Of a stretch of DNA of 17,366 bases, positions 291 to 17,366 are shown in pieces; the first letter of the stretch is position 1; each line of letters begins with the position of its first letter. The notes beneath the pieces were generated by a model. The model ran no database searches. It was not told where the DNA came from and was given only the letters and a program-made list of their open reading frames with translations. The translations under genes were made by a program, and so were the position numbers. The stretch is taken from positions 1-17,366 of the forward strand of contig JANRLW010000042.1 in NCBI GenBank assembly GCA_033762295.1, given 5' to 3'. The DNA comes from Capsulimonadales bacterium (GTDB lineage: Bacteria; Armatimonadota; Armatimonadia; Armatimonadales; Armatimonadaceae).

Positions 291-348
291 GATACGGGCA
301 GGAACCGACCCGCTCCGGTGGCGAAACGAGGAGCGGAGGAACGTCGAA

Positions 349-1436: not shown

Positions 1437-2516
1437 ATGTTTAAGCAGGATTCGACGGGGAAGTGGATTCCCGATCTGCCCCAGCATGAACTCGGCGGCG
1501 CGTTCGCCGCCGGTGTCTGGAATATCGGTCCCGGAGGCGGGCGTTTCGCCCCGGCCATGCGCCCGACGCTGTCGCTGGAAGCGACGCTGAGCGAACTCAA
1601 GGCGGCCGGTTGCACCTATGTCGAGTTTCACGATACCGAGGCGGAGCCGAAGGACGCCGACGCGATCATGACCGCCGTCCGGAACGCCGGCTTGCAGGTT
1701 TCGATGTGTACCGCCAACCTGTTCAAGCGCGGGCCGGAGTTCGCCAACGGTAACTTCGGGTCGCCGGTGCCGGCGACCCGCGCCGAGGCGGTCCGGCGTA
1801 CCAAAGATTATATTCGCACCGGCATCGAAGTCTTCGGTGCGGGAGTTTATGTCTACTGGAACAGCAGCAACGGCTTCGGCGGACCCCTGATGGTGAACTA
1901 CGCCGACGTTTACAAAATGACCGCCGACGGGTTGAGCGAGGTGGTCGCCTGGATGCTGTCCGAGTACGGTCCCGAACGCGCCCTGCCGATCGCGATCGAA
2001 CCGAAGCCGAACGAACCGGTGAACTGGGGCGTTCCGGCGGACTGCGGCGAGGCATTGGCCATCATCGCGCTGATGCCGGAGGAGTACCGCCCGTTCGTGG
2101 GCACCAACCTGGAAACCTGCCACTCGCTGATGGCGGGGAAACGGTACGCGGCGGAGATCGGCCTGGCGGCGGCGGCGAACAAGGTCTTTTATGTCCACCT
2201 GAACGGCGGCACCGGCCTGAAATTCGATGAGGATATCGCGTTCGGTGACAACGACTTCGGCGTCGCGATCGAGACCGTCCACACCCTGAGGGAGGTCGGG
2301 TATTCGAGCGTGGTCGGGATCGACGTCCAGCCGCTCAACACCGATACCGCCGAGCAGCAGAACGCGTCGGTCGCGCGCAGCATCCGCAACTTCCGCCGCG
2401 CCCTGGAAATCGTGAACGAGCGGATCGATCCGAACGCGCTGAACGCCCTGCGCGAAACCGCCAACCGCGCCGAACTGGCCGAATGGTTCGCGGTCGTCAC
2501 TTCCGGCAAGCATTAA
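1437..2516 (+). CDS. Class-I xylose isomerase-like TIM-barrel sugar isomerase with atypical active site, 359 aa
   Basis: GVWNIG, EFHD, MCTANLF, VYW, IEPKPNEP, NLETCH, KFDEDIAFG and GIDVQP align in order with Streptomyces-type XylA motifs. Purine-rich RBS (GGAAGGAAGAG) upstream. No xylA symbol is given because of the ligand substitutions described in the findings. Confidence 0.85.
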   Translation: MFKQDSTGKWIPDLPQHELGGAFAAGVWNIGPGGGRFAPAMRPTLSLEATLSELKAAGCTYVEFHDTEAEPKDADAIMTAVRNAGLQVSMCTANLFKRGPEFANGNFGSPVPATRAEAVRRTKDYIRTGIEVFGAGVYVYWNSSNGFGGPLMVNYADVYKMTADGLSEVVAWMLSEYGPERALPIAIEPKPNEPVNWGVPADCGEALAIIALMPEEYRPFVGTNLETCHSLMAGKRYAAEIGLAAAANKVFYVHLNGGTGLKFDEDIAFGDNDFGVAIETVHTLREVGYSSVVGIDVQPLNTDTAEQQNASVARSIRNFRRALEIVNERIDPNALNALRETANRAELAEWFAVVTSGKH

Positions 2517-2548
2517 ACCGGAAATCGTCGAAACCGCGTTGGAATCGG

Positions 2549-2577
2549 AAGCGGGGCCACTGGCCCCGCTTTATTTT
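2549..2577 (+). terminator. Rho-independent terminator after the isomerase gene
   Basis: AAGCGGGGCC-ACT-GGCCCCGCTT perfect 10-bp stem, overlapped and followed by TTTATTTT. Confidence 0.9.
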
Positions 2578-2651
2578 GTCCACTGTATTTTGGCGGGGTT
2601 CCTGCCGAAAATCCCAAAGGGACAGCGTTCCCGGGGAAAGGTAATACGGCA

Positions 2652-5432
2652 GTGGCAACGGTGATTCAACAGCAATCCGGTCCGTCGGAGGTAACCCGAC
2701 CGACTCCCTCCCTTCGATTCGAACGCGGCGCGACGGTGTTCGTCTGTCTGTTGTTCGTTCTGTCCGGGGCCTGCGGACTGGGGTACGAGGTCGTCTGGGC
2801 CAAATTCCTCGGACAGTTCCTCGGAAATACGGTTCTGCTGCATACCGCGGTCCTCGGCGCGTTCGTCTCGGGACTGGCGCTCGGAAGCCTGGCGATCGGA
2901 CGCCGCGCCGACCGATGGGCCGCGCCTCTGAAGATCTACGGATTTCTGGAGATCGCGATCGCCGGTTATGCGATCGTGTTCCCGACGCTGTCCGGACTGG
3001 GGCAGAGCGTCGTGTATTCGGCGGCGAAAGCGATGCCGCCCGGTTCGCCCGCCTTGATTGCCGTCAAAATGCTGGTCGGCGCGGCGCTGCTCGCGCTCCC
3101 GACCATTCTGATGGGCGCGACCTTCCCCGTCCTGACCGCGCATGTCGAACGCAGTCGGCGACTTGCCCTCGGGGCGAACGGGGCGAACTGGCTCTACTTC
3201 GCCAACTGCGCGGGGGCCGTCCTGGGAACCCTCGTCACCGGGTTCCTCCTGATTCCGGGGGTCGGACTGACCGGGACCGTGACCGGAATCGCTCTCCTGA
3301 ACCTGGTCGTCGGGGTCGCCGCCGTCGTCGCGGAAAAGATTCTGCCCGCCGAGCCGATCGCACCGCCCGAAGCCGCCAATGTCGTGCGCCTGCCCGGCGC
3401 GCCCGCCGCCGGAACCGCCCTCACCGGTCAGCAACGCGCCGTGCTGATCGCCATCTGCGTCTCCGGCGCGACCGCCTTCCTCTATGAACTGGTCTGGACC
3501 CGACTCTTCGCGGTCACCCTGGGCAGCAGCACCTACTCGTTCACCCTGATGCTGGCCGCGTTCATCACCGGACTGGCGGGCGGCAGTATCGTGTCCGGAC
3601 TCGCGCCCACGCATCGGCGACCGCTCGTCTGGTTCGCCGTAGCCGAGGTTCTGATCGGAGTGGTCATCGCTTTGTCCGTCCCGCTCTATCCGCACCTGCC
3701 ACATACCTTCTGGCAGTGGAAATGGCTGCTCCGCCCCAACGCCGAGAGTATCGGCCTGTACCATCTGTTTCAGTACGGGGTCATCTTCAGCGCGATGTCC
3801 CTGCCGACGTTCCTGTTCGGTCTGACGTTCCCGACGGCGATCAAGGCGGCATCGGAGGAGAACGACGGCGGAAGCGTGGCCGAACGGGCGGCGATGGTTT
3901 ACGGGTGGAACACGGTCGGCACCCTCGCCGGTACCCTGGCCGCCGGCTGTCTCCTGATCCCGATGCTGGGACTGATGCGGACACTCCAGATCGGCGCGGT
4001 AATCAATCTGGGGATCGGCCTGTTCCTCCTGCCGATCGGACCGGCGATTCGCCGTGGTCTGCTGTTCCTCGCCGTACCCGCGGCGATCATCCTGGTGGCA
4101 ACCCCGGTTTGGGACCCCGCACTGCTGACCGTCGGCCTGTTCCGACACCGGGATCAACGTCCGATCCCCTGGGAGGAGCATCGCAAACTGCTCGCCGACC
4201 GTAAATCGGTTTTTTACCGCGAGGACTTCGGCTCGACGGTCGCCGTGGTTCGTGCGAAAGAGGACACCGGCAAGGATCAGTTGACGCTGGTCGTGGACGG
4301 CAAAGCCGATGCCTCCTCGGTATCGGATATGCCGACGCAGGTATTGCTGGCGCAATTGCCTCTCCTCTTCAAGCCCGACGCCCGGGACGTTTTCGTTCTC
4401 GGACTCGGCAGCGGTGTCACCGCAGGGAATGTCCTGACCCATCCGGTGGACCGGGTCGATTGCGTGGAACTCTCTCCGGCGGTAATCGACGCCGCCCGAA
4501 CCTTCCGGGAGGCCAACCACGACCCGTTCGCCGACCGACGCTTCCATTTATATGAGGACGACGGTAAGACGTTCCTTGCGTCGGTCAACCGTCAGTACGA
4601 TGTCATTATCAGTGAACCCACCAACCCGTGGATCGCGGGAGTCGGCGGCCTGTTTACGCGCGAAACGTTCGAAGCTCAGAGGGATAAACTGCGTCCGGGC
4701 GGGATCGTCGCCCAGTGGTTCCATTCCTACGAACTCGATGATCGTCTGGTGGCGACAATCCTGCGAACGTTCCGTGAGGTCTTCCCCGAAACCCTGATCT
4801 TCCAGGGATGCTCCGGCGACTTCATCATTCTGGGATCGCTGGAACCGATCCGCCCGGATTATGCGGCGATGGGCGAACGGATGCGGACGCCCGCCGTCGC
4901 GGCGACGCTGACTCCGATCCGAATCAGCAGTATCCCGGCCCTGCTCGCCATGCAGAGCCATTCCACCGAGGCGGCCCAGGCGCTGACCGAGGGCGGCGGA
5001 ATTAACTCGGACGACTTCCCGCAACTGGAGTACCTGGCCCCGCATGCGTTCTACGTGGGAGAACCCGTTCGCCGCCTGGCCGAAATGGATGGCCGGTTCC
5101 GTAAGGACGGGAACCTCCTGCTCTCCGAATACCGCCGACAATTCCCTCTGACACAGAACGACGAGTGGAGCATCGTCACCCTGATGGACGATGTCCGGAT
5201 TCGAAAGAACGAACTGTTCCCGCGTGTCCTCCTCTCCTATGCCGAACGTTATCCGGACGATCCGCGGGCGGCCCTGCCGACGGTGCAGGTATTGCGGGCC
5301 ATCGGGCGGGAGGCCGAAGCGCTGGCGCAGGCGGAGCGATGGGCCGCGAGGGGCAACGCCGAGGCGAAAACGCTGGCGGAAACGATCCGCAACGCGATAA
5401 AAGAGAAGCGACAAAACGCGCTGATCGACTGA
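2652..5432 (+). CDS. Fused MFS-like membrane domain / spermidine-synthase-like (class I SAM-binding) protein, 926 aa
   Basis: GTG start after GAAAGG. About 13 hydrophobic helices with an internal 6+6 duplication (SG..L.YE.VW twice; N..G...G.L..G.LLIP.G twice). C-terminal LVVDGK, VLGLGSGVT, CVELSPAV, DDGK.FL, YDVIISEP.NPW, LRPGG..AQW and NSDD.P.LEY, then a TPR-like tail. Confidence 0.9.
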   Translation: MATVIQQQSGPSEVTRPTPSLRFERGATVFVCLLFVLSGACGLGYEVVWAKFLGQFLGNTVLLHTAVLGAFVSGLALGSLAIGRRADRWAAPLKIYGFLEIAIAGYAIVFPTLSGLGQSVVYSAAKAMPPGSPALIAVKMLVGAALLALPTILMGATFPVLTAHVERSRRLALGANGANWLYFANCAGAVLGTLVTGFLLIPGVGLTGTVTGIALLNLVVGVAAVVAEKILPAEPIAPPEAANVVRLPGAPAAGTALTGQQRAVLIAICVSGATAFLYELVWTRLFAVTLGSSTYSFTLMLAAFITGLAGGSIVSGLAPTHRRPLVWFAVAEVLIGVVIALSVPLYPHLPHTFWQWKWLLRPNAESIGLYHLFQYGVIFSAMSLPTFLFGLTFPTAIKAASEENDGGSVAERAAMVYGWNTVGTLAGTLAAGCLLIPMLGLMRTLQIGAVINLGIGLFLLPIGPAIRRGLLFLAVPAAIILVATPVWDPALLTVGLFRHRDQRPIPWEEHRKLLADRKSVFYREDFGSTVAVVRAKEDTGKDQLTLVVDGKADASSVSDMPTQVLLAQLPLLFKPDARDVFVLGLGSGVTAGNVLTHPVDRVDCVELSPAVIDAARTFREANHDPFADRRFHLYEDDGKTFLASVNRQYDVIISEPTNPWIAGVGGLFTRETFEAQRDKLRPGGIVAQWFHSYELDDRLVATILRTFREVFPETLIFQGCSGDFIILGSLEPIRPDYAAMGERMRTPAVAATLTPIRISSIPALLAMQSHSTEAAQALTEGGGINSDDFPQLEYLAPHAFYVGEPVRRLAEMDGRFRKDGNLLLSEYRRQFPLTQNDEWSIVTLMDDVRIRKNELFPRVLLSYAERYPDDPRAALPTVQVLRAIGREAEALAQAERWAARGNAEAKTLAETIRNAIKEKRQNALID

Positions 5433-5477
5433 TCCTTCGGGTCGGGACGGCGATCGGCGCGGAAACGGACGCAGGCC

Positions 5478-6161
5478 ATGAAACTGCTGATCGTTGAGGA
5501 TGATCCCGGGCTGGTCAAGGTACTCCGGATGGCCGTGACGGAAAACGGCTATGAGGCCGTTGCCGAGGGAGACGGCGTGATCGCGCTGGAACGGGCGCAG
5601 GAGGAGGCATTCGACCTGATCCTCCTCGATGTCATGCTGCCCGGACTCGACGGCTTTACGATCTGCCGTCGCTTGCGTGAGGCGATGGTGCGAACGCCGA
5701 TTTTGATCATGACGGCGCGCGACGCGGTCAAGGACAAGGTCGACGGGCTGGACGCCGGGGCGGACGATTACATCGTCAAACCGTTCCCGCTGGCGGAACT
5801 GCTGGCCCGGGTTCGGGCGTTGTTGCGCCGGGCGCAGGCCGCCCCCACCCTCCTGCGGGTCGGCGACCTTGTCCTCAACCCGGCGACCCGCGAGGCGCGC
5901 CGGGACGACAAACGGATCTACCTCTCGGCCACCGAGTTCTCCCTGCTCGAGTTCCTGATGCGGAACGCCGGACGCGTCCTGAACCGTTCCGCCATCATGA
6001 ACCATGTCTGGGAATATGATTTCGGCGGGAATGACAACGTGCTGGAAGTGTATATCAGCTACCTGCGGGGCAAGATCGACAAGGGGTCGAAGAAACCGCT
6101 GATCCATACGGTGCGCGGGGTGGGGTACGTCCTGGAGGACCGGGGAGAGACGCGTTCGTGA
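5478..6161 (+). CDS. OmpR/PhoB-family response regulator (CusR/CzcR/MprA-like), 227 aa
   Basis: MKLLIVEDD, LILLDVMLPGLDG (phospho-acceptor Asp), GLDAGADDYIVKPF, and a C-terminal wHTH with NVLEVYISYLRGKID...IHTVRGVGY. Confidence 0.96.
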   Translation: MKLLIVEDDPGLVKVLRMAVTENGYEAVAEGDGVIALERAQEEAFDLILLDVMLPGLDGFTICRRLREAMVRTPILIMTARDAVKDKVDGLDAGADDYIVKPFPLAELLARVRALLRRAQAAPTLLRVGDLVLNPATREARRDDKRIYLSATEFSLLEFLMRNAGRVLNRSAIMNHVWEYDFGGNDNVLEVYISYLRGKIDKGSKKPLIHTVRGVGYVLEDRGETRS

Positions 6162-7477
6162 CCGCGACCGGTCCGTTTGCCTCCTTACGCGCCCGGATGA
6201 CCATCGGCTTCAGCGTGCCGTTCGGTCTGGTCGTGCTCGTCTGTACGGCCATGGTGATGATCTGGACCTACTTCCTGGCCCGTTACGAAGCGATGCAGGT
6301 GATCTCGACTGCGGGAGCGCACCTGCATCGGGCCGGTTTGCGGGACCGTTCCCGCGAACATCTGCTGGCGACCCTGACCGAACTGGAGCGGGACGAACGC
6401 CTGGGGCATATCTCCCTGGTGGTTCAGGACGATCGGGGCCGGGTCATCGCCTCCAACCACCTGCCCATGCCTCCGCTGCAGGGGCCGGATCAGGAGCGCT
6501 GGCTGACCGTGCCGACCACGTTCGGGGATTGGCGGGTCGTGGCCGGCCTGTACTGGGAACCCACCCGACGATCCCTCAGATTTCAGGCGATTCAGGTCGT
6601 GGTCGTGTCGGTTCTGGTGACCGCCGTCGCCTCGGCGTTCGCGTGGATTCTCGTCGGGCGAACATTGCGCCCGATCAAGGCGCTGTCCGAGCAGGCCGGC
6701 GCCGCCACCTCCGACCCCCTGCACGTCCGTCTGGTCCCGCCCTCTCCCGATGCCGAACTCCGTCTGCTGGTCGATACGCTGAACACCATGCTGGATCGAC
6801 TGCGGCAGGACACGGTCGCGAAAGAGCAGTTTTACGCCTCCGCCGCGCACGAACTGCGCACCCCTCTGGCCGTTCTGTCGGGCAGTATCGAGATGGCCCT
6901 GTCGCGTCCGCATGCGCCGGAGGAGTATCGCGAAACCCTGGCCGACCTGCATAAGGAGACCGCCCGCCTCATCACCCTGACCGAGAGCCTGCTGTTCCTC
7001 AACCGTCTGGAGATGCGGACCGATCGGGAAAAGCCGGAAGAAGTCGATGTCGCCGATATTGCCGAGCGCACCCTGAACGGTCTGCGGACCCAGGCCGACG
7101 AACGAAACCTGACCGTCTTCGTCCATACGGCGGAGGTGATCCTCGCCGCGCCGCCGACCCATGTCCGTGTCCTGGTCCGAAACCTGCTCGAGAACGCCGT
7201 GCGCTATGCGACCTCCGGCGGACAGGTGGATGTTTCGCTCAAATGGGAGGACGGTCAGCCCTGTCTCCGCGTGCGGAACGATGCCCAACTTCCCGATAAT
7301 CTCGATCTCGACCGGCTGTTTACCCCCTTTTTCCGTGCCGACGCCTCGCGGAACTCCGCGACCGGTGGCAACGGTCTGGGCCTGAGTATCTGTCAGGCGC
7401 TGGCGAGGGCGAACGGCTGGCATTTCGCTCTGGAACGGGATCGCGGCGGATTTTGCGCCATCGTCCGTTTCGGATAG
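6158..7477 (+). CDS. Sensor histidine kinase (2 TM, HAMP, HisKA, HATPase_c), 439 aa
   Basis: GTGA overlap with the regulator stop codon (translational coupling). Two TM helices, HAMP (LRPIKALS...ELRLLVDTLNTMLDRL), H-box AAHELRTPL, N-box NLLENAVRY, F-box LFTPFFRAD, G2-box GNGLGLSI. Confidence 0.95.
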   Translation: MTATGPFASLRARMTIGFSVPFGLVVLVCTAMVMIWTYFLARYEAMQVISTAGAHLHRAGLRDRSREHLLATLTELERDERLGHISLVVQDDRGRVIASNHLPMPPLQGPDQERWLTVPTTFGDWRVVAGLYWEPTRRSLRFQAIQVVVVSVLVTAVASAFAWILVGRTLRPIKALSEQAGAATSDPLHVRLVPPSPDAELRLLVDTLNTMLDRLRQDTVAKEQFYASAAHELRTPLAVLSGSIEMALSRPHAPEEYRETLADLHKETARLITLTESLLFLNRLEMRTDREKPEEVDVADIAERTLNGLRTQADERNLTVFVHTAEVILAAPPTHVRVLVRNLLENAVRYATSGGQVDVSLKWEDGQPCLRVRNDAQLPDNLDLDRLFTPFFRADASRNSATGGNGLGLSICQALARANGWHFALERDRGGFCAIVRFG

Positions 7478-7506
7478 CCGTACTCGCTGGCCTGTCGTCT
7501 TCTTCC

Positions 7507-7585
7507 GTGACACGGGCGTGACACTTTGCCCGGTTTTTGTGACACTTTGCCCGGTTTTTGTGACCGAATCGCGGCGATCTGTGAC
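7507..7585 (+). repeat. Phased GTGAC direct-repeat array containing an exact 21-bp tandem duplication (putative operator)
   Basis: GTGAC at 7507, 7518, 7539, 7560 and 7581 (spacings 11, 21, 21, 21). GTGACACTTTGCCCGGTTTTT occurs exactly twice (7518-7538 and 7539-7559). Lies between the kinase stop and the NTPase-WD40 gene. Confidence 0.85.
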
Positions 7586-7625
7586 GGTTTTCCGAAACGA
7601 GCGGACGGACCGATGGGAACCGATG

Positions 7626-7631
7626 TACTAT
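7626..7631 (+). promoter_or_regulatory. Putative -10 box (TACTAT) of the NTPase-WD40 gene
   Basis: TACTAT lies 17 nt upstream of ATG 7649. There is no canonical -35 and no SD, consistent with an activator-dependent, short-leader promoter. Confidence 0.35.
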
Positions 7632-7648
7632 GTTCCCGGTACCCGGTC

Positions 7649-10600
7649 ATGCCTGTCCCATCCCAGTCTCACACCGAACGTCCCCCGTCCGAACCGGACG
7701 CCTTCCCCGAACGTTTCTTCGTAACGGGTGGGACGGTGCCGGCCGATTCCCCCGCCTATGTCGAGCGTCGCGCCGATGGCGACCTGCTCGATGCGCTCCT
7801 GCGCGGCGAATACTGTTACGTCCTCAATACCCGACAGATGGGGAAATCGTCGCTGTCCGTGCGCACGATCCGAAAACTGAACGGTCAGGGGGTTCGGACC
7901 GTCTTTCTCGACCTGACGGCGTTCGGCGGCCAGAACGCCACGCCGGACCGCTGGTATCTTTCCCTGGCGGCGGAGGTCGGTCGACAACTGGAGATCCGGG
8001 AGGAGTTCGTCGGCTATCTCAAGGAGCAGCAGGACAAGACACAGGTTTTCCGGCTTTTCGGCGCGCTTCGGAACGTCGCTCCGGAACGGACAAACGCGCC
8101 GCTGGTGATCTTCGTCGATGAGATCGATATCGTACGGTCACTTCCGTTCCCGACCGACGAGTTTTTCGCGGCGATCCGCGCCTGCTATAACCTGCGTTCG
8201 ACGGACCCGCCCTTCCACCGGTTGACCTTCTGCCTGCTCGGGGTAGCGACGCCCGCCGACCTGATCGTCGATACGAAAACCAGCCCGTTTAATATCGGGC
8301 GACGGATCAACCTGACCGATTTTACGGCGGAGGAGGCGCGCCCGTTCGCTCAATGGCTTCCGGGCGGTGAAAACGCGCTGCGACGTGTCCTCCACTGGAC
8401 CGGCGGACATCCCTACCTGACGCAACGTCTGTGCCATGCGGTCGTCGAAAAGGGAGCGCGTTCGACACGGGATATCGACCTCGTTTGCGACGCTCTGTTT
8501 CTCTCGAAGTCCGCTCGCGAAACCGACGATAACCTCTCCTTTGTCCGGAATCGTCTCCTGCGCTCCGATGCCGACCTGCCGTCGCTCCTGGACCTCTATC
8601 GAAAGGTGCGGGCCGGCAAGCGGGTGCGCGACGATGAGACCAACCCGCTCTGCGCCACTCTGCGACTGTCCGGCGTCTGCCGTACCGAACGTGATCTTCT
8701 GGTCGTTCGGAACCGGATTTATGACCGGGTGTTTGATGCCCGATGGGTCGAGTCGCATATGCCGGACGCCGAACTGCGACGGCAGCGGGAAGCCTATCGG
8801 CGTGGTGTGACGCGGGCGACCGCCCTCTCCGGCGCGGTGACCGTCGCGTTCGGTGTGCTGTCCTTCGTGGCGATTACCAAGGCGAACGAAGCGAATGCGC
8901 TCAGCCGAACGGCCAACGAGCAGCGAAGAGCGGCCGAGGACGCCAGTCGGCAAGCCCGCGTGGCGAGCCGATGGGCGCGGGCGAGCGAGGATCAAGCGAA
9001 AGCGCAGGCGAACGAAGCCCGGCGGCAGACGGTCATCGCGCGGCGCGAGGAACGGATCGCTCGGGAGGCGGAAAAGAACGCGAAATCCCTGACGCTCCGC
9101 CTGGAGGACGCTCTGGACGCCGCGCGAATGTCCGAAGGCAAGGCCACACGGGCGGCGGACGCCGCCCGGCACTCCGAACGTCAGGTGGCCGAGAGCCTGC
9201 GCCGGGAGACGCTGCGGAACGGGATAAGTCTGCTCGAAGAAGGGGACCTGGAACCGGCGATCCGACGGCTGACCGAGGTCTTGCAGCTCGACGAACGGTT
9301 CTTTCCGGAGCGGATCGAGGCCGATCGGAAGCGGCTTGCCTTTGCGGAACGGCGTCGACTGGCCCCCACGGTCGTTCTCGAGGCGGGCGGTCCGGTCCGT
9401 AAAGCCTCCTTCTCTCCGGACGGCTCGCGTATCGTCACGGTGACCACCGACGGCAGGATGCGTCTGTTCGATGTGGCCGGACGGTTCCGGGTGGTGACCG
9501 AACGCCGATGGAACACCACGATCTTCGATGTCGCATTTTCGCCGGACGGGCAGCGGTTCGCGTTGCTGACCGCCGATGCGCGCGGATATCTGTACGACGC
9601 GGCTTCCGGACGGCGGATCGCGACGCTGGTCCATTTCGAGAAGCCGGAAAGGCTCGGGGAAGGGGGGTGCGTGGCGTTCAGCCCGGATCGAAAATATCTG
9701 GCGACCGGGATACGACCGGGAACCGCGATCTGGGATGCGCGCACCGGAGACGAAGTCGGGCGCGTCCGGTGGGAGGACACGGGGGACTGGGACGCACGCT
9801 GGTATAACCGTGTCCCGCTGATTCCCACCGCCCTCGCGTTCTCTCCCGATCGGCCGTATCTCGCCTGCGTCTACGGAGGATACCAGTCGAACGGGGCGAC
9901 CCTTCGCTTTCCGGAGATCGGAAAATTGGAAACCGTCTACCCCGGCTGCTGGTCCGGTCGGGCCGTGCATTACAGTCCCGACGGAAGCAAGGTGCTGATC
10001 GTCGGCGAATATGGCCAGGAGACGACCGCCGTATTATACGACGCGAATATCAGCTGGAAACGCGGATTGCCGATCGGGGATCGACCCGGGGGAGTGGACG
10101 GAGTTTTCAGTCCGGACGGGAAACGGGTGGCGCTTATCAGTTCCGACAATGCGGGGCGGATCTACGATACGTTCGGTCGGGCCGTCGGCGAAGCGTTCCG
10201 CCATCGTTCGCCGATCCGCACCGTCCGTTACGACTGGACCGGTCAATGGCTGGTGACCGCCTCCGCCGACGGTACCGCCCGTGTCTGGGACAGCCGGAAC
10301 GGCAGAAACATCGGCGGCGCGCTCGGACATCCGGCGGAGGTGACCTTTGCCGAGTTTTCCCCGGACAGCCGTTTCGTATTGACCGCCTGCCAGGATGGAA
10401 AGGTGCGACTCTGGCCGTGGGATTTCGAAAAGAGCCTGCGGGACGAAAGGATCCCGCCGCCGATGCCGGAAAGCGTCGACCGGTTCAAAATACGGTGGGA
10501 GGATACCGAAGGAGAAGTCCTGAAGTTCCGAACGAACGGCGCCCATCCCGAGGCGACGGCGTTTGTGAACGCCGTCACCCGTCGCCCCGAACCGATCTAC

Positions 10601-11521
10601 GCGCGGCTTCCCGGCGAACACCGGGAGGATGGTCCGCAGCGGAAATGGTCCCTGGTCCGTGTCGGAAAGGAGTACCGGATTTATGAACGGGCGACCGGTC
10701 GTCTTCTCCGAACGTTCCCGGATCGGGGCCAGGAGTTCGGTCTTACCGTGACCGGAGACACCCTCGGTCGGTATTTGTTTTGCTTGTTCCCTGACGGTCG
10801 CCGGGGGGTGCTGGACAGTAAAACGGGACGTGTTCTCCCCGACGACCCGACGGGTTTCTTCTTTCCCGCCCTCGGGAAGCACCTGCCTCTTCCCTACCGC
10901 AGAAACGATGCGTCTTTCGTCGATTCGCCGAGCCGGATGACAACCGTTCGCTGGCTGGTGGAGGACGGAACCGGACGTTCCGAAGAGCGATTCCATGTCT
11001 TCTTTTTGGATCAGCACGCTTCCCGGATACGGGATCTGGGCATGCTTCCCCTGTTCCGCCAGATCGTCATCAGCCCGAATGATCGCTATCTGGTCATCGA
11101 CGGCGCAAACGCCGGTATGTATGATACCGGAACCGGGAAACGGCTTGCCTCGCTATGCGGCCCGCGAGAAAAGGTCATCTCGCTCGCGATCTCTCCGAAC
11201 GGAGAACGGATCGCGGTGGGCACAGCGGATAAAACGGTCTTCGTGATCGACGCACACACCCGCCGTCGGATCGGGGCGGTAACCGCCCTTCCCTCCCCGG
11301 CCGCCAGATTAGCCTTTTCTCCGGACGCCCGATCGCTGGCGATGGCCTGCAGTGACGGAAGCATTACCGTTCGGGAGACGGACAATGGCGACCCGTTGAC
11401 CCCGATCCTGCGACAAACGTACGGCACATTGGACCTGCGCTTTACCTCCGATGGCAAGAACCTTCTGGTTCTGCGTTCCGTGAACAACGAACGGGTGCCT
11501 TACCTGCTGTCCCTGTTCTGA
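7649..11521 (+). CDS. STAND-type (AAA_35-like) NTPase - single TM - coiled coil - WD40 beta-propeller protein, ~1290 aa
   Basis: FVTGGTVPADSPAYVERRAD, Walker A VLNTRQMGKSS (7820-7852), Walker B LVIFVDEID, SPFNIG, STAND GxP motif WTGGHPYLTQRLC and RNRIY. TM at 8816-8878 preceded by an Arg-rich stretch. A/R/E-rich coiled coil, then 12 clear FSPDG-type WD40 repeats. Start is uncertain: 7649 preferred, 7613 possible, and 7526 runs through the repeat array. Confidence 0.9.
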   Translation: MPVPSQSHTERPPSEPDAFPERFFVTGGTVPADSPAYVERRADGDLLDALLRGEYCYVLNTRQMGKSSLSVRTIRKLNGQGVRTVFLDLTAFGGQNATPDRWYLSLAAEVGRQLEIREEFVGYLKEQQDKTQVFRLFGALRNVAPERTNAPLVIFVDEIDIVRSLPFPTDEFFAAIRACYNLRSTDPPFHRLTFCLLGVATPADLIVDTKTSPFNIGRRINLTDFTAEEARPFAQWLPGGENALRRVLHWTGGHPYLTQRLCHAVVEKGARSTRDIDLVCDALFLSKSARETDDNLSFVRNRLLRSDADLPSLLDLYRKVRAGKRVRDDETNPLCATLRLSGVCRTERDLLVVRNRIYDRVFDARWVESHMPDAELRRQREAYRRGVTRATALSGAVTVAFGVLSFVAITKANEANALSRTANEQRRAAEDASRQARVASRWARASEDQAKAQANEARRQTVIARREERIAREAEKNAKSLTLRLEDALDAARMSEGKATRAADAARHSERQVAESLRRETLRNGISLLEEGDLEPAIRRLTEVLQLDERFFPERIEADRKRLAFAERRRLAPTVVLEAGGPVRKASFSPDGSRIVTVTTDGRMRLFDVAGRFRVVTERRWNTTIFDVAFSPDGQRFALLTADARGYLYDAASGRRIATLVHFEKPERLGEGGCVAFSPDRKYLATGIRPGTAIWDARTGDEVGRVRWEDTGDWDARWYNRVPLIPTALAFSPDRPYLACVYGGYQSNGATLRFPEIGKLETVYPGCWSGRAVHYSPDGSKVLIVGEYGQETTAVLYDANISWKRGLPIGDRPGGVDGVFSPDGKRVALISSDNAGRIYDTFGRAVGEAFRHRSPIRTVRYDWTGQWLVTASADGTARVWDSRNGRNIGGALGHPAEVTFAEFSPDSRFVLTACQDGKVRLWPWDFEKSLRDERIPPPMPESVDRFKIRWEDTEGEVLKFRTNGAHPEATAFVNAVTRRPEPIYARLPGEHREDGPQRKWSLVRVGKEYRIYERATGRLLRTFPDRGQEFGLTVTGDTLGRYLFCLFPDGRRGVLDSKTGRVLPDDPTGFFFPALGKHLPLPYRRNDASFVDSPSRMTTVRWLVEDGTGRSEERFHVFFLDQHASRIRDLGMLPLFRQIVISPNDRYLVIDGANAGMYDTGTGKRLASLCGPREKVISLAISPNGERIAVGTADKTVFVIDAHTRRRIGAVTALPSPAARLAFSPDARSLAMACSDGSITVRETDNGDPLTPILRQTYGTLDLRFTSDGKNLLVLRSVNNERVPYLLSLF

Positions 11522-11524
11522 CGG

Positions 11525-11554
11525 CGACCGGCAGACGGCTCTAAACGCCGGTCG
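11525..11554. terminator. Stem-loop at the convergent gene junction (possible weak bidirectional terminator)
   Basis: CGACCGGC (11525-11532) and GCCGGTCG (11547-11554) form a perfect 8-bp inverted repeat around the stop of the - strand gene. No U tract. Confidence 0.3.
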
Positions 11555-12248
11555 GTCGAATCGTCGGAGGGCGTCGCGTCTCCGGCAGGTCCGGATCTAT
11601 CTCCCCCCGGTTCGGGTGCGAATGGTTGAAGTAGACGAGCGCACCATCGCTCTCCCGGAGGCTGACCCGTAATGTGCGGTTGAGGTTGTCACGGGCGCCG
11701 ATGTTGAACAGCAACTCCTGAACCGGAGCGTCCTGCCCCACGGTCTTCCGGTGACTACGAACCAGGGTCAGCCGTGGGTTGTCCCACCCGAAAATCCGAA
11801 TGTACGAAAAGCCGAGCCATCGTGTCTCCCGCTCCCGCATGGGGCGATTCGGTCTCGCCGTGGCTCCGCCTGCGGTGGATCCCTGCCGTCGAAAATAGAG
11901 TATTCGGCCGTCCTCCGATCGAACGCGCACCTGGAATTCCGTATCTCCGGAATGGCAGGTGACGTCCCAGATCGATCGAGCCAGCCGACCGGAAGGGAAA
12001 ACGGAGGCGGCGGAAAGAATCGTGGTGGACTGCCCGCTGATCCGGGTGCAGACTTGCTCCGCATGGGAGGTTGCCGCCTGCCGCCCGGGCTCGTACGACC
12101 GGACAGTCGCAAATCGGCAGACCAGCGAAATGGACAAAGCGGGAACCAGCCAGAGCGCGACCTTTTGAGCCAATTCCGCCGGAGTGCGTTGCGGGGACGC
12201 CTGAGCCACGCCACAAACGATACCCGGCATACTGCGAACGACCATCAT
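11541..12248 (-). CDS. Hypothetical membrane-anchored protein with two PepSY-like repeats, ~235 aa
   Basis: Start moved from 12398 to ATG 12248 because GAAAGGAAG precedes it. Hydrophobic segment VALWLVPALSISLVC. Two similar units end in WDVTCHSGDTEFQVRVRSEDGRILYF and VQELLFNIG...TLRVSLRESDGALVYF, resembling the PepSY helix + V.V...DG.I hairpin pattern. Confidence 0.6.
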   Translation of the reverse strand: MMVVRSMPGIVCGVAQASPQRTPAELAQKVALWLVPALSISLVCRFATVRSYEPGRQAATSHAEQVCTRISGQSTTILSAASVFPSGRLARSIWDVTCHSGDTEFQVRVRSEDGRILYFRRQGSTAGGATARPNRPMRERETRWLGFSYIRIFGWDNPRLTLVRSHRKTVGQDAPVQELLFNIGARDNLNRTLRVSLRESDGALVYFNHSHPNRGEIDPDLPETRRPPTIRPTGV

Positions 12249-12370
12249 CCCTGCTTCCTTTCTTCCAAAAAGATGGCGATAATCTCCATAAAACCGAAAA
12301 TCGTCGAGCGATAAGCCCCTTCGCCATTTTTTGCCGACGGCGCATCCCCTGTATTTCGACCAGTAACCTG

Positions 12371-12414
12371 GGGTATAATATAACATTAAACAAAACATTG
12401 CGTCCGCTTGTTTA
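12371..12414. promoter_or_regulatory. AT-rich overlapping divergent promoters and inverted repeat
   Basis: TATAAT on + at 12374-12379. TGnTATATT (extended -10) on - at 12385-12377. TAAACAA-N14-TTGTTTA inverted repeat at 12387-12414. Confidence 0.5.
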
Positions 12415-12457
12415 TTTGGCCGATCTTCACGGACACTTTCACTATAGGAACTTCTCC

Positions 12458-12519
12458 GTGACCGTAGTGTGTTCGGAGGGTCGGTGGTGTGACAGTTCGT
12501 GTGACAGGCATTGTGGCAT
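12458..12519 (+). repeat. Second GTGAC direct-repeat array upstream of the SARP-NTPase gene
   Basis: GTGTGACAG at 12487 and 12499, degenerate TTGTGGCAT at 12511 (12-bp period), and a further GTGAC at 12458. Confidence 0.7.
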
Positions 12520-12557
12520 ACGGCATTTCCTCTGTTTATTTCTTGTCGGAGCTATTT

Positions 12558-14225
12558 ATGAAGCACGGGCGGTTGGCGATTCAAATGCTGGGCGGGTTCT
12601 CCGTCTCCGCGGACGGCAGGCCGCTCGACGGGTTGCAGCGGCGCGAAGGCCGTCGTCTGCTCGCGTTCCTGATCCTGCAGAGGGGCGAACCGGTGGAGTA
12701 CCGAACCCTCGCCGAACGGTTCTGGCCGGCGGAGGCCCGGTCGGTGGCGGAGTTCGGGGGAGGGTACGATTCCGCGCGGCAGGCGATCCACTCTTTGCGA
12801 ACCGCCCTCGGACCGGACGCCGAGCGTCTGCAGAGCGTCAACCGGGGGGTTTTACGTTTCGATTGTGACGGACTGGCGATCGATCTGGCGGAGTTCGACC
12901 GTCTGATCCGGTCGGAGTCCCCTGCCGACTGGAAAGCTGCCTGCGCCCTCTATGGCGGGCCGCTGCTCGATGGGTGGACCGATACCTGGGTCCTACCCGC
13001 GCGTCAACGGCGACAGCGCGAGTACGAACGCCTGCAGGAACGGCTCCGGGAAACTCCGGAGGTCTCCCCGGTATCCTCCGCGTCGCCGGATTCACCCCCG
13101 GGAACCGTGCCCGCCCGCCTCGCGGACGGCGACGAACCGGCGGAATCCCTTTCCCTCGAGCCGGAAAGCGGGGCGATGGCGCTCGATTCGCGATTCTACA
13201 TCCGGCGGCCGATCGATACCTCGTTTTTCGCCGCGCTGGACCGCCAGGACGCCATCCTGCTGATCCAGGGCGCGCGCCAGATGGGAAAAACCTCGCTGAT
13301 GGCGCGCGGACTCGATCACCGGCGCAGTCGGAACGGTCACGTGGTTGTCACCGATTTCCAGAGCCTCCCCGCCGCACGGCTGGAATCGGTCGATGCCCTG
13401 TACTTCGGACTGGCCGCCAGCATCGCCCGACAACTCCGAATCGACGGACCCCGGCAAGATTGGGACGAGGATTTCGATGCCTCGACCAACCTGGAGGAGT
13501 TTTTGCGGCGGGTTCTTGCCGACCGATCGCTGGTCTGGGGAATGGATGAGGTCGATCGACTCTTTTCCTGTCCGTTCGGTTCCGAAGTCTTCGGACTGAT
13601 TCGCTCCTGGTACAACCGCCGCGCTCTGGAACCGCAGGGTATCTGGTCGCGACTGACGCTGGTCATCGCCTACGCAACCGAGGTACACCTGTTTATCTCC
13701 GATATCAACCAGTCGCCGTTCAATGTCGGAACACGCTTTGCCGTGACGGACTTCACTCGGAACGAGACCGAGGAACTGAACCGGCGCTACGGCAGCCCCC
13801 TGCGGAACGACACGGAACGAGAACGGTTTTATCGGGCGTTCTCCGGCCATCCGTATCTTTCCCGGTTGGCGCTCAATCTGATGGTCGGTCAGCGTTTCTC
13901 CCTCGGCGAACTGGAACGCATGGGGCAGGGGGACGAATCGCCCTTTCACAACCACCTGCGCCGTTTTCACCAGCTCATCTCCTCGGACGACCGACTGGAA
14001 ACGGCGTTGCAGGCGGTACTGGCGGGGCGAGCGGTGACCTCGGTCGACGCCTTCTACCGGTTGCGTAGCGCGGGCCTGATCGTCGGCGAACCGTCGTCGG
14101 CTCGCCTGCGCTGCGGTCTCTACGCCGATTTCTTCGCGCATCGCCTCGGAGCGAACGGCACGAACCGGGGAAAGTTACCTAACGCCAGCCCCGGTCCTGC
14201 GCCTCGGATGCCGTCAGGCGAATGA
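12558..14225 (+). CDS. SARP-like transcriptional regulator: wHTH + truncated BTAD + STAND-type (AAA_35-like) NTPase, 555 aa
   Basis: ATG 12558 follows GGAG at 12548-12551. LAIQMLGGFSV..DG, RRLLAFLIL, LAERFWP and RQAIHSLRTALG form an AfsR/SARP wHTH. IDLAEF..ALYGGPLLDG..D.WV..RQR is the BTAD start. Then GAMALDSRFYIRR, Walker A GARQMGKT (13269-13292), Walker B VWGMDEVD, DINQSPFNVG, GHPYL and RC.LY..FF. Confidence 0.9.
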   Translation: MKHGRLAIQMLGGFSVSADGRPLDGLQRREGRRLLAFLILQRGEPVEYRTLAERFWPAEARSVAEFGGGYDSARQAIHSLRTALGPDAERLQSVNRGVLRFDCDGLAIDLAEFDRLIRSESPADWKAACALYGGPLLDGWTDTWVLPARQRRQREYERLQERLRETPEVSPVSSASPDSPPGTVPARLADGDEPAESLSLEPESGAMALDSRFYIRRPIDTSFFAALDRQDAILLIQGARQMGKTSLMARGLDHRRSRNGHVVVTDFQSLPAARLESVDALYFGLAASIARQLRIDGPRQDWDEDFDASTNLEEFLRRVLADRSLVWGMDEVDRLFSCPFGSEVFGLIRSWYNRRALEPQGIWSRLTLVIAYATEVHLFISDINQSPFNVGTRFAVTDFTRNETEELNRRYGSPLRNDTERERFYRAFSGHPYLSRLALNLMVGQRFSLGELERMGQGDESPFHNHLRRFHQLISSDDRLETALQAVLAGRAVTSVDAFYRLRSAGLIVGEPSSARLRCGLYADFFAHRLGANGTNRGKLPNASPGPAPRMPSGE

Positions 14226-14676
14226 CCTTGCCGTCGGCCTGCAGAAAGCCACGGGTGGGAACGACGGTCGGAGCGCCTTTGGCCGGCGGCGGCAGCTCCG
14301 CTTCCGCATAGATCAGCTCCGTCCCCGCCAGGTTTTTCAGAATCTTGCGCGAGAATTTCGGATTGGGCAGGTGCGGGGCGTTGTCGCCCATGCGGACGAA
14401 GGCGTTGTCGAAAGGGACGTAAAGCGGCAATAGACCCGCCTTCGTCCTGTCCGGATGGTCCATCGCCGGGAGTTTGCCGCCGTGGTCCGCAGCGTACCGC
14501 TTCAGGCCGTCCGCGAGTATCTCCAGATCGTACTTCGTGTCCTTTTGCTGTTTGCGAAGCATGGCCGCCCGCAGACCCGACTCGCTCACATTGACCAGCA
14601 TGGCAAAGAAAGCGAGGATGGTCAACCCCCCGAAAAACAGGAGCAGCAGTTTACATCCCATCGTCCTCTCGGTCAT
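14179..14676 (-). CDS. Pseudopilin / DUF1559-like exported membrane protein, 165 aa
   Basis: SD GAGGAG upstream. N-terminal TM. DLEILADGLKRYAADHGGKLP resembles the GspG/DUF1559 helix motif, and the C-terminal RGFLQADGKV resembles the 'FADGHV' (H-X9-DG) terminal motif. Confidence 0.65.
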   Translation of the reverse strand: MTERTMGCKLLLLFFGGLTILAFFAMLVNVSESGLRAAMLRKQQKDTKYDLEILADGLKRYAADHGGKLPAMDHPDRTKAGLLPLYVPFDNAFVRMGDNAPHLPNPKFSRKILKNLAGTELIYAEAELPPPAKGAPTVVPTRGFLQADGKVIRLTASEAQDRGWR

Positions 14677-14760
14677 TGTTTCTCCTCACCTATGTTATCG
14701 GTTGATAAGCCGAGAATGCCTACCTGCCTGAGGGTTCATCGGGCGATGATCCGGAGGGCG

Positions 14761-14769
14761 TGCTATACT
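14761..14769 (+). promoter_or_regulatory. Extended -10 promoter of ilvE
   Basis: TGCTATACT (TGn-TATACT) ends 57 nt upstream of the ATG at 14826. Confidence 0.55.
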
Positions 14770-14825
14770 TCCCAAAAGCTTGGTGGCGACCGCCGCCGAC
14801 ATCCTCGCGAAAGGGTAATGCGCTC

Positions 14826-15704
14826 ATGGCGGAATATGTTTATATCAACGGTGAGTTTGTCCCGAAAGCGGAGGCGAAAGTCTCTTTTTTCGACCACGGC
14901 TATCTCTACGGGGACGGCGTCTTCGAGGGAATCCGGGTTTACAACGGACGTATCTTCCGGTTGGAACCGCATGTCGAGCGTCTGCTGTATTCGACGCATG
15001 CCCTGGGCTTTCCGAAAGGCGACCTGACCCTGGCGTCGGTCAACGAGGCGATTCTGGAAACCTGCCGCCGCAGCGATCATTACAACGGTTATATCCGGGT
15101 CAATATCTCGCGGGGGACCGGCCTCGGACTGGACCCTTCGCATATCGAACAGATACCGAGCTTTACGATCGCGACGAATCAGTTGCGGCTGTACCGCGCC
15201 GATCTGTACGAGACGGGGCTGACCATGATCACCTGCGCGATGCGCGTCGCACCGCCGGACGTGATCGATCCGCGTATCAAATGTACGGGGAAGTACGTCA
15301 ATAATATCCTTGCCAAGATGGAAGCGAACCGGGTCGGGGCAGGGGAGGGGCTGATGCTCAACCAGCAGGGGTATGTGGCGGAGGCGACCGGGGATAACAT
15401 TTTCGTCGTTCGAGACGGGGTGATCTACACGCCGCCGCCGTCCGCGGGCTGCCTGAAAGGGATCACCCGGCAGGTCGCCTGGGAACTGGCCGAACGGATG
15501 AATCTTCCGGTTCGTGAGGATAACCTGACGCTGTATGACGTTTACAATGCCGACGAATGCTTCCTGACCGGGACGGGAGCGGAGATTATCCCGGCGATCT
15601 CGCTCGATGACCGGCCGATCGGCGGAGGAAAACCGGGCAGTATCACCCGTCGCCTGATTGCCGCGTTCCGTGACCTGACCGGCTCCACCGGCACCCCGCT
15701 CTAG
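14826..15704 (+). CDS. ilvE: Branched-chain amino acid aminotransferase (PLP fold type IV), 292 aa
   Basis: Start moved to ATG 14826 (GAAAGGG upstream). YINGEFVP, FDHGYLYGDGVFEGIRVY, H..RL..S, YIR, DPRIK (PLP Lys), E.TGDNIF, L.GITR and ADECFLTGT.AE. Confidence 0.93.
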   Translation: MAEYVYINGEFVPKAEAKVSFFDHGYLYGDGVFEGIRVYNGRIFRLEPHVERLLYSTHALGFPKGDLTLASVNEAILETCRRSDHYNGYIRVNISRGTGLGLDPSHIEQIPSFTIATNQLRLYRADLYETGLTMITCAMRVAPPDVIDPRIKCTGKYVNNILAKMEANRVGAGEGLMLNQQGYVAEATGDNIFVVRDGVIYTPPPSAGCLKGITRQVAWELAERMNLPVREDNLTLYDVYNADECFLTGTGAEIIPAISLDDRPIGGGKPGSITRRLIAAFRDLTGSTGTPL

Positions 15705-15884
15705 TTCCGTCGGAGAGTTCCCTCACCGGCCGCCGCAGCGACCTGTCCCCCGCGAAGCCCGGACGGTGGATTCCCGCCGGGTTCCCGCCGGTGGAACGGG
15801 TACCATATCGAAAATGCGGCAGGGAACGGTTCGCCGTTTGTCCAATAGTCACGTCGCACAAAACGCAACGAAAGGCATCTTTTC

Positions 15885-17333
15885 ATGTCCGCACCACGCA
15901 TCGGTCTGACCGGGCTTGCCGTCATGGGTCAGAATCTCGCGCGAAACATCGCCCGCAACGGCTTCCCGATCGCCGTCCATAACCGTACCACCGAGAAGAC
16001 GCTGGAATTCGTCCGGGAGTACGGTCACGAAGGGACTTTCGTCCCCGGCACGACCGATGAGGAGTTTGTCGCCGCCATCGCCCCGCCGCGCGCGATCATT
16101 ATCATGGTCAAGGCGGGGAAACCGGTGGATGATGTGATCGGAAAGTTGAAGCCGTTCCTGGCCAAGGGCGATTTGCTGATCGACGGCGGCAACTCGCACT
16201 ACTCCGACACGCAGCGGCGGATCGACGAACTGGCCGCCGAGGGACTGAACTTCCTCGGAACCGGCGTCTCCGGCGGGGAGGAGGGGGCGCTCAACGGACC
16301 GTCCATCATGCCCGGCGGGCCGCGCCAGGGGTACGACTACATTTCGGACATCCTGACGAAGATCGCCGCGCAGGTCGATGGCGAACCCTGCTGTACCTAC
16401 ATCGGCGAGGGCGGGTCCGGCCATTACGTCAAGATGGTCCACAACGGCATCGAATACGCCGACATGCAGTTGATTGCCGAGGCGTACGACCTGCTGAAGA
16501 ACGCGGTCGGGCTGTCCAACGACGAAATCGCCGATGTCTTCGCCGAATGGAACGCGGGCGACCTGGACTCGTTCCTGATCCAGATCACCGAACAGATCTT
16601 CCGGACGAAGGACGCGGAGACGGGCGAAGGCTATCTGGTGGACAAAGTCCTGGACCGGGCGCAGCAGAAAGGGACCGGGAAGTGGGTCTCGCAGTCGGCG
16701 CTCGATCTGGGGTCGCCGGTGACCGCCATTACCGAGGCGGTTTTTGCCCGCTTCCTTTCGGCGTTGAAGGAGCAGCGGGTGGCGGCGTCCGCTCTGCTCT
16801 CCGGACCGTCGGGGAGGTACTCGGGCGACCGGAAGGCGTTTATCGACGCGGTTCGGGATGCGCTGTACGCCTCGAAGATCGTCGCTTACGCCCAGGGGTT
16901 CGACCAGATGGGTCTGGCGGCAAAAGAGTTTGGCTGGAACCTGCACTACGGCGAACTGGCGACGATCTGGCGCGGCGGCTGTATCATCCGCGCGCGATTC
17001 CTGAACCGGATCAAGGAGGCGTACGACCTGCAGCCGGACCTGGCGAACCTGATGCTCGCTCCCTACTTCAACGACGCGTTGAAAGGGGTGCAGGAGTCCT
17101 GGCGTCACGTCATTCGGGAGGCGGTGTTGCTCGGGGTGCCTGTCCCGGCGTTTACCTCCTCGCTGGCCTATTACGATGGCTACCGTCGCGCCGATCTGCC
17201 GGCGAACCTGATTCAGGCGCAGCGCGACCTGTTCGGGGCGCATACGTATGAACGAACGGACCGTCCGGGCACGTTCCATTCGATGTGGGGACCGGGGGAC
17301 GGCGACCCGCACCCGATGAAACCGAAGGAGTAG
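15885..17333 (+). CDS. gndA: 6-phosphogluconate dehydrogenase, NADP-dependent, decarboxylating, 482 aa
   Basis: [15 protein letters not shown] (NADP specificity), [47 protein letters not shown] and [21 protein letters not shown] upstream. Confidence 0.98.
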
Positions 17334-17366
17334 AACGCCTGCGGAAATAGCAAAAGAAGACGGGAG

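Follow-up and report, generated by a model that had tools for sequence, protein, structure and literature searches.

We analysed a 17,366-nucleotide stretch of a GC-rich Capsulimonadales genome (GenBank assembly GCA_033762295.1, contig JANRLW010000042.1, positions 1 to 17,366, forward strand; the window) that carries two genes of the AAA_35 family of nucleoside triphosphatases (NTPases), here called A and B. The A/B system is real and widespread, and it joins known parts in an arrangement for which we found no characterised example. A would span the membrane once as a receptor, the NTPase on the inner side and the β-propellers on the outer, and would form a kinase-free signalling unit with B, a soluble SARP activator. 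In the reading that we favour, and to which we give somewhat better than an even chance, A senses an outside signal and alters the assembly of B through the NTPase modules, and SARP heads on DNA boxes switch on a gene for a membrane-anchored or surface protein. The architecture, the two clades, their linkage and co-descent, and the tie between a promoter type and B's subfamily are computational observations; the contact between A and B and the topology of A are predictions, and the ligand, the oligomer and the direction of control are what we infer.

Gene A (7613..11521, +) is an intact open reading frame (ORF) of 1302 residues from the ATG at 7613, with the ATG at 7649 as an alternative start. 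Its A-type NTPase module (7706..8785, +), made up of an AAA+ core, a helical domain and a winged helix, matches Pfam AAA_35 (PF14516) over residues 39–281 (E 6e-28, 98 bits); both A and B score above the curated cut-off of 27 bits. The one hydrophobic segment of A (residues ~403–422, Kyte-Doolittle 1.99) has six Lys/Arg residues before it and two after it, and hydropathy and charge bias predict a single transmembrane helix here (8819..8878, +) with the N-terminus in and the C-terminus out. Behind the helix lies an Ala/Arg/Glu-rich helical stalk (8879..9350, +; by eye from the sequence, likely a coiled coil), followed by a WD40 β-propeller region (9365..11518, +), the presumed outside sensor; WD40 models cover the C-terminal portion of A through to its end. 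No effector domain was found in a Pfam scan of the translation. The predicted topology places the NTPase inside and the propellers outside.

Gene B (12558..14225, +; 555 residues, ORF intact) has the complementary make-up. It begins with a SARP head (12558..13046, +), consisting of an OmpR-type winged helix and the first helices of a BTAD whose TPR part is absent, and continues with a B-type AAA_35 module (13149..14156, +; Walker A QGARQMGKT, Walker B GMDEVD). Pfam AAA_35 matches residues 204–527 (E 2e-66, 224 bits), and the module terminates the protein. Hydropathy analysis revealed no hydrophobic segment in B, and no sensor domain was found in it. The head scores weakly in Pfam (Trans_reg_C, E 0.016), and BTAD (PF03704) gives no match in B. 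We nevertheless regard the SARP head as genuine because EmbR (E 2e-5) and AfsR (E 6e-5) are its top profile matches and also the top fold matches of its model (pLDDT, a predicted-accuracy score, 92; TM-score 0.73–0.75 to EmbR and AfsR, with AfsR at 0.73). Only three helices follow the winged helix in this model, compared with the seven of a full BTAD, and similarity to a full-length paralogue stops at residue 159, where the BTAD ends after its first helices. The same short form recurs in relatives, so the shortening is a subfamily trait and not decay. Thus the SARP winged-helix head proposed by the first-pass annotation stands, with a BTAD shorter than supposed; of the Pfam matches that it expected, AAA_35 and WD40 were found, Trans_reg_C was weak and BTAD was missing. 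A convergent ORF for a membrane-anchored protein (14182–14676, −; 161–165 residues, no match in Pfam or NCBIfam) overlaps the last 44 bases of B, and a 30-residue tail of B past the usual end of the family falls within this overlap.

That A and B are two genes of one NTPase family with complementary architectures, as first proposed, is borne out by the Pfam AAA_35 matches of both and by four motifs (RQMGK[S/T]SL, DE[I/V]D, SPFN[I/V]G and GHPYL), all present in both translations; aligned over 251 residues, the two NTPase domains share 32% identity (E 3e-21). The Walker A motif of A reads LNTRQMGKS, with the first Gly changed to Asn, and its Walker B motif reads FVDEID. A model of the A module (pLDDT 91) aligns over ~300 residues with STAND and ORC folds. 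Its best structural matches, which are also the top Foldseek matches, are the archaeal ATPases PAB2304 (2QEN) and SSO1545 (2FNA), with Z scores of 19.2 and 19.0 and root-mean-square deviations of 4.7 and 4.6 over 310 and 305 aligned residues, respectively. Lower matches are ORC/Cdc6 and plant resistosomes (Z 14.6–14.9), MalT (14.0), CED-4 (12.8), Avs3 (11.9) and NAIP/NLRC4 (11.6). Sequence matches to solved structures are weak (best 2FNA, E 0.016), with no close solved relative.

Because the archaeal ATPases rank above ORC/Cdc6 and the resistosomes of the NLR class (nucleotide-binding, leucine-rich-repeat proteins), outscoring NLRs by more than 4 Z units, the A/B NTPase is a basal MNS-type STAND of the archaeal-ATPase type and neither NB-ARC nor NACHT. 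Neither NB-ARC nor NACHT is among the four Pfam families that match B at E 0.01, nor among the best 25 of the 35 families that match A. Both modules have the STAND combination of a P-loop, a GxP helical domain and a winged helix with intact Walker A and B motifs. The one-chain order of effector, NTPase and sensor is lacking, since A has no effector and B no sensor. The earlier label of an NLR-like STAND therefore keeps its STAND-like part and loses its NLR part.

The genome of the window (5.16 Mb) contains 11 AAA_35 genes, six A-type, all with a helix behind the NTPase, and five B-type, with two SARP, one cyclase and two cyclase-TIR outputs; six of the 11 form three A+B pairs within 10 kb, on contigs C42 (the window), C70 and C116. 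A quick tree of this genome and 13 related genomes splits 31 A rows from 29 B rows by one long branch (SH-aLRT support 100), giving the distinct clades that the first-pass annotation had anticipated. Labels were taken from Walker A residues and concur with the independently read architecture; three rows were left out (a B with a divergent Walker A, a partial A and an unrelated match). The Walker A Lys is invariant in both clades (31/31 A, 29/29 B), and the Walker B Asp and Glu are nearly so (30/31 and 31/31 in A; 29/29 and 27/29 in B). Arginines in the helix behind Walker B (R189 in the window's A, R349 in its B) are invariant in both types, as is the GxP motif of the helical domain (G234-x-P236 in the 31 A rows, G233-x-P235 in the 29 B rows).

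The two types also keep company in gene neighbourhoods. AAA_35 copies occur in 14 of 31 genomes, and all 14 have both types; outside the window's own genome the opposite type lies within 10 kb of 18/25 B and 18/25 A genes, compared with same-type neighbours for 2/25. Among 80 A loci from a species-level collection (the best 80 of at least 611 matches, and so biased to the query), 58 have a B within 8 kb, as do 32 of the 35 in which both flanks are complete. Linked A/B genes occur in at least eight phyla or comparable groups: Armatimonadota, Acidobacteriota, Verrucomicrobiota, Bacillota, Gammaproteobacteria, Chloroflexota, Actinomycetota and Cyanobacteria. When loci were chosen by the SARP head alone, an A was found near all 13 complete B proteins. 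The co-occurrence first put forward from the window extends across phyla. The suggestion that cyanobacteria hold similar pairs agrees with one cyanobacterial genome with 21 AAA_35 matches, which has the same split and pairing and in which most copies of the A type carry the helix. The trees of the two partners are correlated (Mantel rho 0.77, p 0.001; 80 unambiguous pairs, two duplicates dropped), and shuffling partners within nine multi-pair genomes lowers the fit from 0.69 to 0.47 (p 0.005). As far as sequence goes, this co-descent demonstrates inheritance as a unit, not contact.

Across the collection the division of labour is maintained while the attached domains vary. A hydrophobic segment (at least 1.6) directly follows the NTPase in 108 of 119 distinct A-types; of these 108, Lys/Arg residues are more numerous before the segment in 86, equal in 20 and fewer before it in two. 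The domains behind the helix are mostly WD40, with TPR, PEGA, CarboxypepD_reg, CBM_4_9, FGE-sulfatase, DUF2092 and CHASE2 in others; several of these are typical extracytoplasmic domains. B-types carry SARP, class III cyclase, TIR, Ser/Thr kinase, GGDEF and CHAT outputs, and the NTPase is the protein end in 119 of 120 longer B-type proteins. Two B-types (L044:7008-9386 and L061:2287-4653) have a TIR domain ahead of the NTPase and a GGDEF domain behind it, an exception to B ending at the NTPase. A 1896-residue frame with the order kinase-B-A-transmembrane-WD40 (P0004, one of the 120 longer proteins) would be a Rosetta-stone fusion; it was not counted because the last ~30 residues of its B part are swapped for unrelated sequence and it is one member on one contig, which makes a frameshift probable.

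Other copies in the window's own genome show similar variety. On contigs C2, C18 and C70 (L071, L074 and L073) the head of the B-type is a class III cyclase or a cyclase-TIR; the gene on C70 overlaps an A gene, and the other two are unlinked. Through such proteins the A/B design may also feed cyclic AMP or TIR signals. Two A-types lack WD40 and have a proline-rich linker instead, followed on C116 (L072) by a CBM_4_9-like domain and on C71 (L075) by a small TonB-C-like domain (by eye; no Pfam match). An unlinked A-type on C73 (44812–51697), with an NTPase 69% identical to that of the window's A, converges on a trio of vWA, PP2C-like and kinase-like genes (by eye).

We modelled the NTPase domains of A and B as a 1:1 complex, as the proposal of an A–B interaction had called for. 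The model scored 0.66, compared with 0.00 for the best control with unrelated proteins. Of 157 solved complexes 116 attain the score mark, as do 2 of 215 mismatched pairs; separate runs share at least 92% of contacts, and the partner pLDDT is at least 85. In the predicted interface A contributes Walker A and Walker B residues and B contributes the helix behind Walker B together with the SPFN segment. The nucleotide-binding face of A would thus meet the trans face of B, as is usual between neighbours in AAA+ rings. We think it likely that A and B touch through their NTPases.

The same interface could serve to restrain B. A would then be an anti-activator that holds B off at the membrane through the NTPase contact and lets go on a signal or on cleavage, and an activating mixed oligomer would be unnecessary; linkage, co-descent and the predicted interface fit this equally well. 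The first Walker A Gly is replaced in every A-type (Asn in 17, Thr in 8 and Asp in 6 of 31; the residue at this position also served to label the A-types), so A may be a poor ATPase. In L041/L127, L197 and L200 B is predicted to drive the A gene itself, which would amount to negative feedback like that of anti-sigma factors. There are precedents for regulators sequestered at the membrane, MalT by MalK and Mlc by PtsG. However, the Walker A Lys and Walker B Glu that all 31 A rows keep, together with the trans-face arginines, fit a mutually completing ring, and the TIR, Ser/Thr kinase and class III cyclase outputs of B-types belong to domains that are typically activated by clustering. We consider restraint by A unlikely, and A probably activates B.

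The DNA between and ahead of the two genes suggests what B does. The first-pass annotation gave the spacing of A and B correctly as about 1 kb and overlooked that the gap contains a minus-strand ORF and a promoter. The ORF (11541..12248, −; 235 residues), the predicted output gene, has a gene-like codon-position GC of 0.63/0.54/0.71, flatter in the alternative frames, and a ribosome-binding motif. The protein has an N-terminal hydrophobic segment followed by a PepSY/YcdB-like predicted fold (Atlas matches, TM-score ~0.5). A SARP-type promoter (12441..12505, −) points at this ORF: boxes begin at 12505, 12493 and 12462, and a 10-nt gap separates the last from TATAGT (12446–12441), with the ORF start 214 nt from the last box. 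Of the stretch 12250–12557 first suggested for a reporter, the informative part is this minus-strand promoter (12505–12441) and not the plus strand. Among 48 genome matches to the promoter core, this site alone has two or more upstream boxes.

The same promoter design recurs in relatives that share the SARP recognition helix. Their motif is a quasi-palindromic GTNACG repeated with a period of ~11 or 21 bp, the last copy lying exactly 10 nt ahead of a TANNNT hexamer. Arrays of at least three phased boxes number 30 in 19 subfamily loci (242 kb) and 0 in 45 control loci (641 kb), the controls being A/B loci with other B heads; the 5.16-Mb genome has 13, three of them in the window. These counts cover both strands and include some arrays twice. 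In 13 held-out loci, found after the motif had been fixed (one duplicate dropped; one locus close to a discovery locus), arrays occur in eight and the full 10-nt geometry in six; of 17 arrays, eight have a spacer of 10 nt to the −10, and no other length between 4 and 20 nt is seen more than twice. The GTNACG promoter is, to judge from these sequences, tied to B's SARP subfamily, and B is highly likely to bind the boxes and to activate. The earlier assignment of transcription as B's output finds support in the same arrays.

Five phased GTNAC(G/A) boxes also lie upstream of A (7506..7585, −; spacing 21, 21, 21 and 11), in an array that contains an exact 21-bp tandem duplication. It is probably the relic of a divergent target promoter and possibly acts on A. 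In L115 an array at the equivalent position drives a divergent gene, and the layout of leftward target, A, leftward target and B is common to the window, L115 and L193; the window has lost the first of these targets, and its array borders directly on a kinase gene. Ahead of B, a TATAAT (12374..12379, +; read from the sequence) is a possible −10 of B's own promoter, and across 12374–12446 it and the target's −10 on the minus strand face each other. The transcript of B would therefore cross its own boxes, making negative autoregulation possible. Neither intergenic region, ahead of A or of B, yielded a promoter in a sigma-70 scan, which also passed over this TATAAT; if the boxes replace the −35 element, such a blank is expected. 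GTGAC repeats precede both A and B, and of four GTGACA pairs spaced 8–23 bp apart in the whole genome three are in the window. Plain GTGAC pairs at 11 bp show no genome-wide enrichment (14, compared with 1 to 34 at other periods) and are absent ahead of most A and B genes. The sole four-box GTNACR array in the genome outside the window (C51, 42658–42721) has no −10 at the 10-nt position.

We followed 15 such promoters to their targets. Five drive proteins with a signal peptide and a PEP-CTERM-like tail (tails by eye; the NCBIfam model missed these five and matched only a similar gene in L193), three drive prepilin-type proteins and one a collagen-like protein. The others lead to A itself (three), a second, cyclase-TIR B (one), the ORF in the window (one) and no convincing ORF (one). 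In L041 a SARP-type B faces both A and the second, cyclase-TIR B, each with a boxed promoter (L041:6176-6206 and 10873-10925), and one receptor may there feed a pair of outputs, one under the transcriptional control of the other.

These targets bear on the idea, raised in the first-pass annotation, that the pair senses predators or phage in the manner of Avs and NLR immunity proteins. TIR domains are present on many B-types, the A module resembles Avs3, Avs5 and resistosomes in structure (Z 11.9–14.8), and STAND proteins with WD40 or FGS sensors have been proposed as counter-invader systems (PMC8195603, in the portion consulted). On the other hand, the predicted output is transcription of surface-protein genes, the neighbours in the window and around other copies are metabolic or housekeeping genes, and PADLOC (2023 library) matches A, B and the target protein to 0 families at E 0.001. 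Nor was a relative of A's NTPase confirmed in a viral collection, where a single-sequence query gave four pattern matches and none that held. Anti-phage or anti-predator immunity is very improbable, and the earlier suggestion is not upheld.

The boxes could also be worked without any coupling of A to B. In that case the genes would be merely linked or co-regulated, with A a target or a separate protein and the boxes controlled by B, by another SARP or by an OmpR-family regulator. The window offers a candidate of the last kind: the plus strand of 2652–7477 encodes a fused MFS-like/spermidine-synthase membrane protein (926 residues) and then an OmpR-family response regulator with a HAMP histidine kinase (5478–7477), the last of these genes stopping 28 bases short of the first box array. 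Regulators of this family, too, bind 11-bp repeats (PMC10972967, as excerpted). The other SARP is a one-chain paralogue on contig C49 (from 32080; L189:7841-10756) with the order SARP with short BTAD, NB-ARC and TPR, whose head is 50% identical to that of B and has a near-identical recognition helix; two CGTGAC copies 11 bp apart lie upstream of its gene, with no −10 at the 10-nt position. To judge by its domains, this protein shows a SARP head swapped between one-chain and split STAND activators. Boxes upstream of A in several loci agree with A as a mere target. We rejected the response regulator as owner of the boxes, since the remaining 18 subfamily loci contain no close homologue of it, and the only complete promoter in the genome adjoins B and not the C49 gene. 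Further, A–B linkage persists where B lacks a DNA-binding head (cyclase-TIR, kinase-TIR and CHAT forms) and therefore follows the NTPase and not a regulon; the A–B complex model, too, passes the score mark. We consider an uncoupled pair quite improbable.

In the scheme we favour, signalling by way of A, the NTPase modules of A and B would bind head to tail, the trans face of B closing the nucleotide site of A. A ligand or clustering would alter the outside domain of A, and the stalk would relay this change to the NTPase of A, which would shift B into another nucleotide or assembly state, most likely within a mixed A/B oligomer in which several SARP heads are aligned. B would bind the phased GTNACG boxes in place of a −35 region and switch on the divergent gene at 11541–12248, and in relatives would switch on genes for surface proteins and often A itself. 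The surface-protein targets suggest a role in envelope or surface remodelling.

Several points weigh against this scheme. The controls of the complex model were unrelated proteins, with no homodimer or non-cognate paralogue among them; close cousins of true partners also pass the score mark, and a head-to-tail AAA+ interface can arise from likeness to solved rings. Co-descent of linked genes is no proof of contact specificity, and near-copies inflate the correlation. In the genome of the window two of five B-types and three of six A-types are unlinked, so that cross-talk or solo action is possible, and in five of 119 A-types the position behind the NTPase shows no hydrophobic segment, hydropathy staying below 1.4. 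On the promoter side, 5 of the 13 held-out loci lack an array and 7 lack the full geometry, several being short contigs; the window's target promoter lacks the 11-bp proximal pair present in most relatives; and no −10 hexamer was found on either strand at the 10-nt position of the array at 7506–7585. The protein encoded by 11541–12248 has no sequence homologue but itself among 509 candidates. The recognition helix of the C49 paralogue is near-identical to that of B, and this protein could serve the boxes without A. Finally, the short BTAD of B appears to lack the helices that form two of the three dimer interfaces of AfsR (PMC11301090, in the part available).

A broader reading, to which we would give somewhat less than an even chance, is that AAA_35 A/B pairs constitute a third general route of bacterial transmembrane signalling, beside histidine-kinase and anti-sigma/extracytoplasmic-function (ECF) pairs, in which a single-pass receptor ATPase and its cognate soluble ATPase form a mixed ring. 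Outside sensors (WD40, TPR, PEGA, CBM, CHASE2) would be swappable on the receptor ATPase and outputs (SARP, cyclase, TIR, Ser/Thr kinase, GGDEF, CHAT) on its partner, with partner specificity residing in the NTPase interface. STAND switches are known as one-chain cytoplasmic sensors. If true, a split form that works across the membrane would be a modular signalling class and would assign a role to a large Pfam family that has so far gone uncharacterised, one that is spread over many phyla with several copies per genome (11 genes here, 21 matches in the cyanobacterium). It would also bear on the origin of paired sensor/helper NTPases and of ORC-like mixed rings. The locus in the window provides a ready promoter read-out for this reading; its practical yield is a predicted operator together with its promoter (GTNACG boxes, 10 nt, −10).

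The A/B pair shares features with several known systems. Like ToxR/CadC and two-component systems, it would carry an outside signal to transcription through an OmpR-type winged helix. ToxR and CadC, however, have no NTPase, and their DNA-binding head is itself membrane-bound; histidine-kinase systems differ in that A and B have no phosphotransfer domains in the Pfam scan. The NLR sensor/helper pairs NAIP/NLRC4 and RRS1/RPS4 likewise divide labour between two related NTPases (Z 11.6 to NAIP/NLRC4). They are cytoplasmic NACHT or NB-ARC proteins with repeat domains in both partners and cell death as output, and differ from A/B in each of these respects. The closest folds to the A module, SSO1545 (2FNA) and PAB2304 (2QEN), are stand-alone, soluble archaeal proteins, unlike A and B.

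The AAA_35 A/B pair is probably the family named Npun2340/2341 in 2004. In the accessible portion of Kaur et al. 2021 (PMC8195603), that family is placed in the MNS clade, following Leipe et al. 2004, and the supplement uses the same label for proteins with an NTPase, TPR, GreAB-C and PIN. This source also describes nSTAND2, in which two adjacent STAND genes, with a STAND module in each as here, are predicted to form a toroidal hetero-multimer. One nSTAND2 partner has eroded NTP-binding motifs and GT4/HEPN effectors, and no membrane sensor is described in the portion consulted (PMC8195603); here both A and B keep the Walker A Lys and the Walker B Asp-Glu, and the output is a SARP. In the parts of PMC11119718 that were available, AAA_35 appears only as a domain on some sigma factors, and a term search of PMC5587647, likewise in part, returned nothing relevant. 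Within the open-access literature, with subscription journals outside the search, we found no account of the pair as a transmembrane signalling system, of its operator or of an experimental study.

AfsR and the large SARPs share with the A/B pair the SARP head, a STAND-type switch behind it and a repeat sensor domain. AfsR binds direct repeats over the −35 region that end 8 nt before the −10 (PMC11301090, as excerpted), and PhoP shares the AfsR site (PMC10972967, likewise in part). Phased direct repeats over −35 just upstream of −10 are thus common to both systems (PMC11301090 and PMC10972967, in the same excerpts), in our case as predicted from sequence alone. The promoter geometry differs, with 8 nt from a longer repeat for AfsR and a GTNACG box with a 10-nt gap to the −10 hexamer here, as does the NTPase (NB-ARC in AfsR, AAA_35 here, with a shortened BTAD). 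Above all, AfsR is one chain, whereas here sensor and effector are carried by two proteins, each with its own NTPase, and a predicted membrane helix stands between NTPase and sensor.

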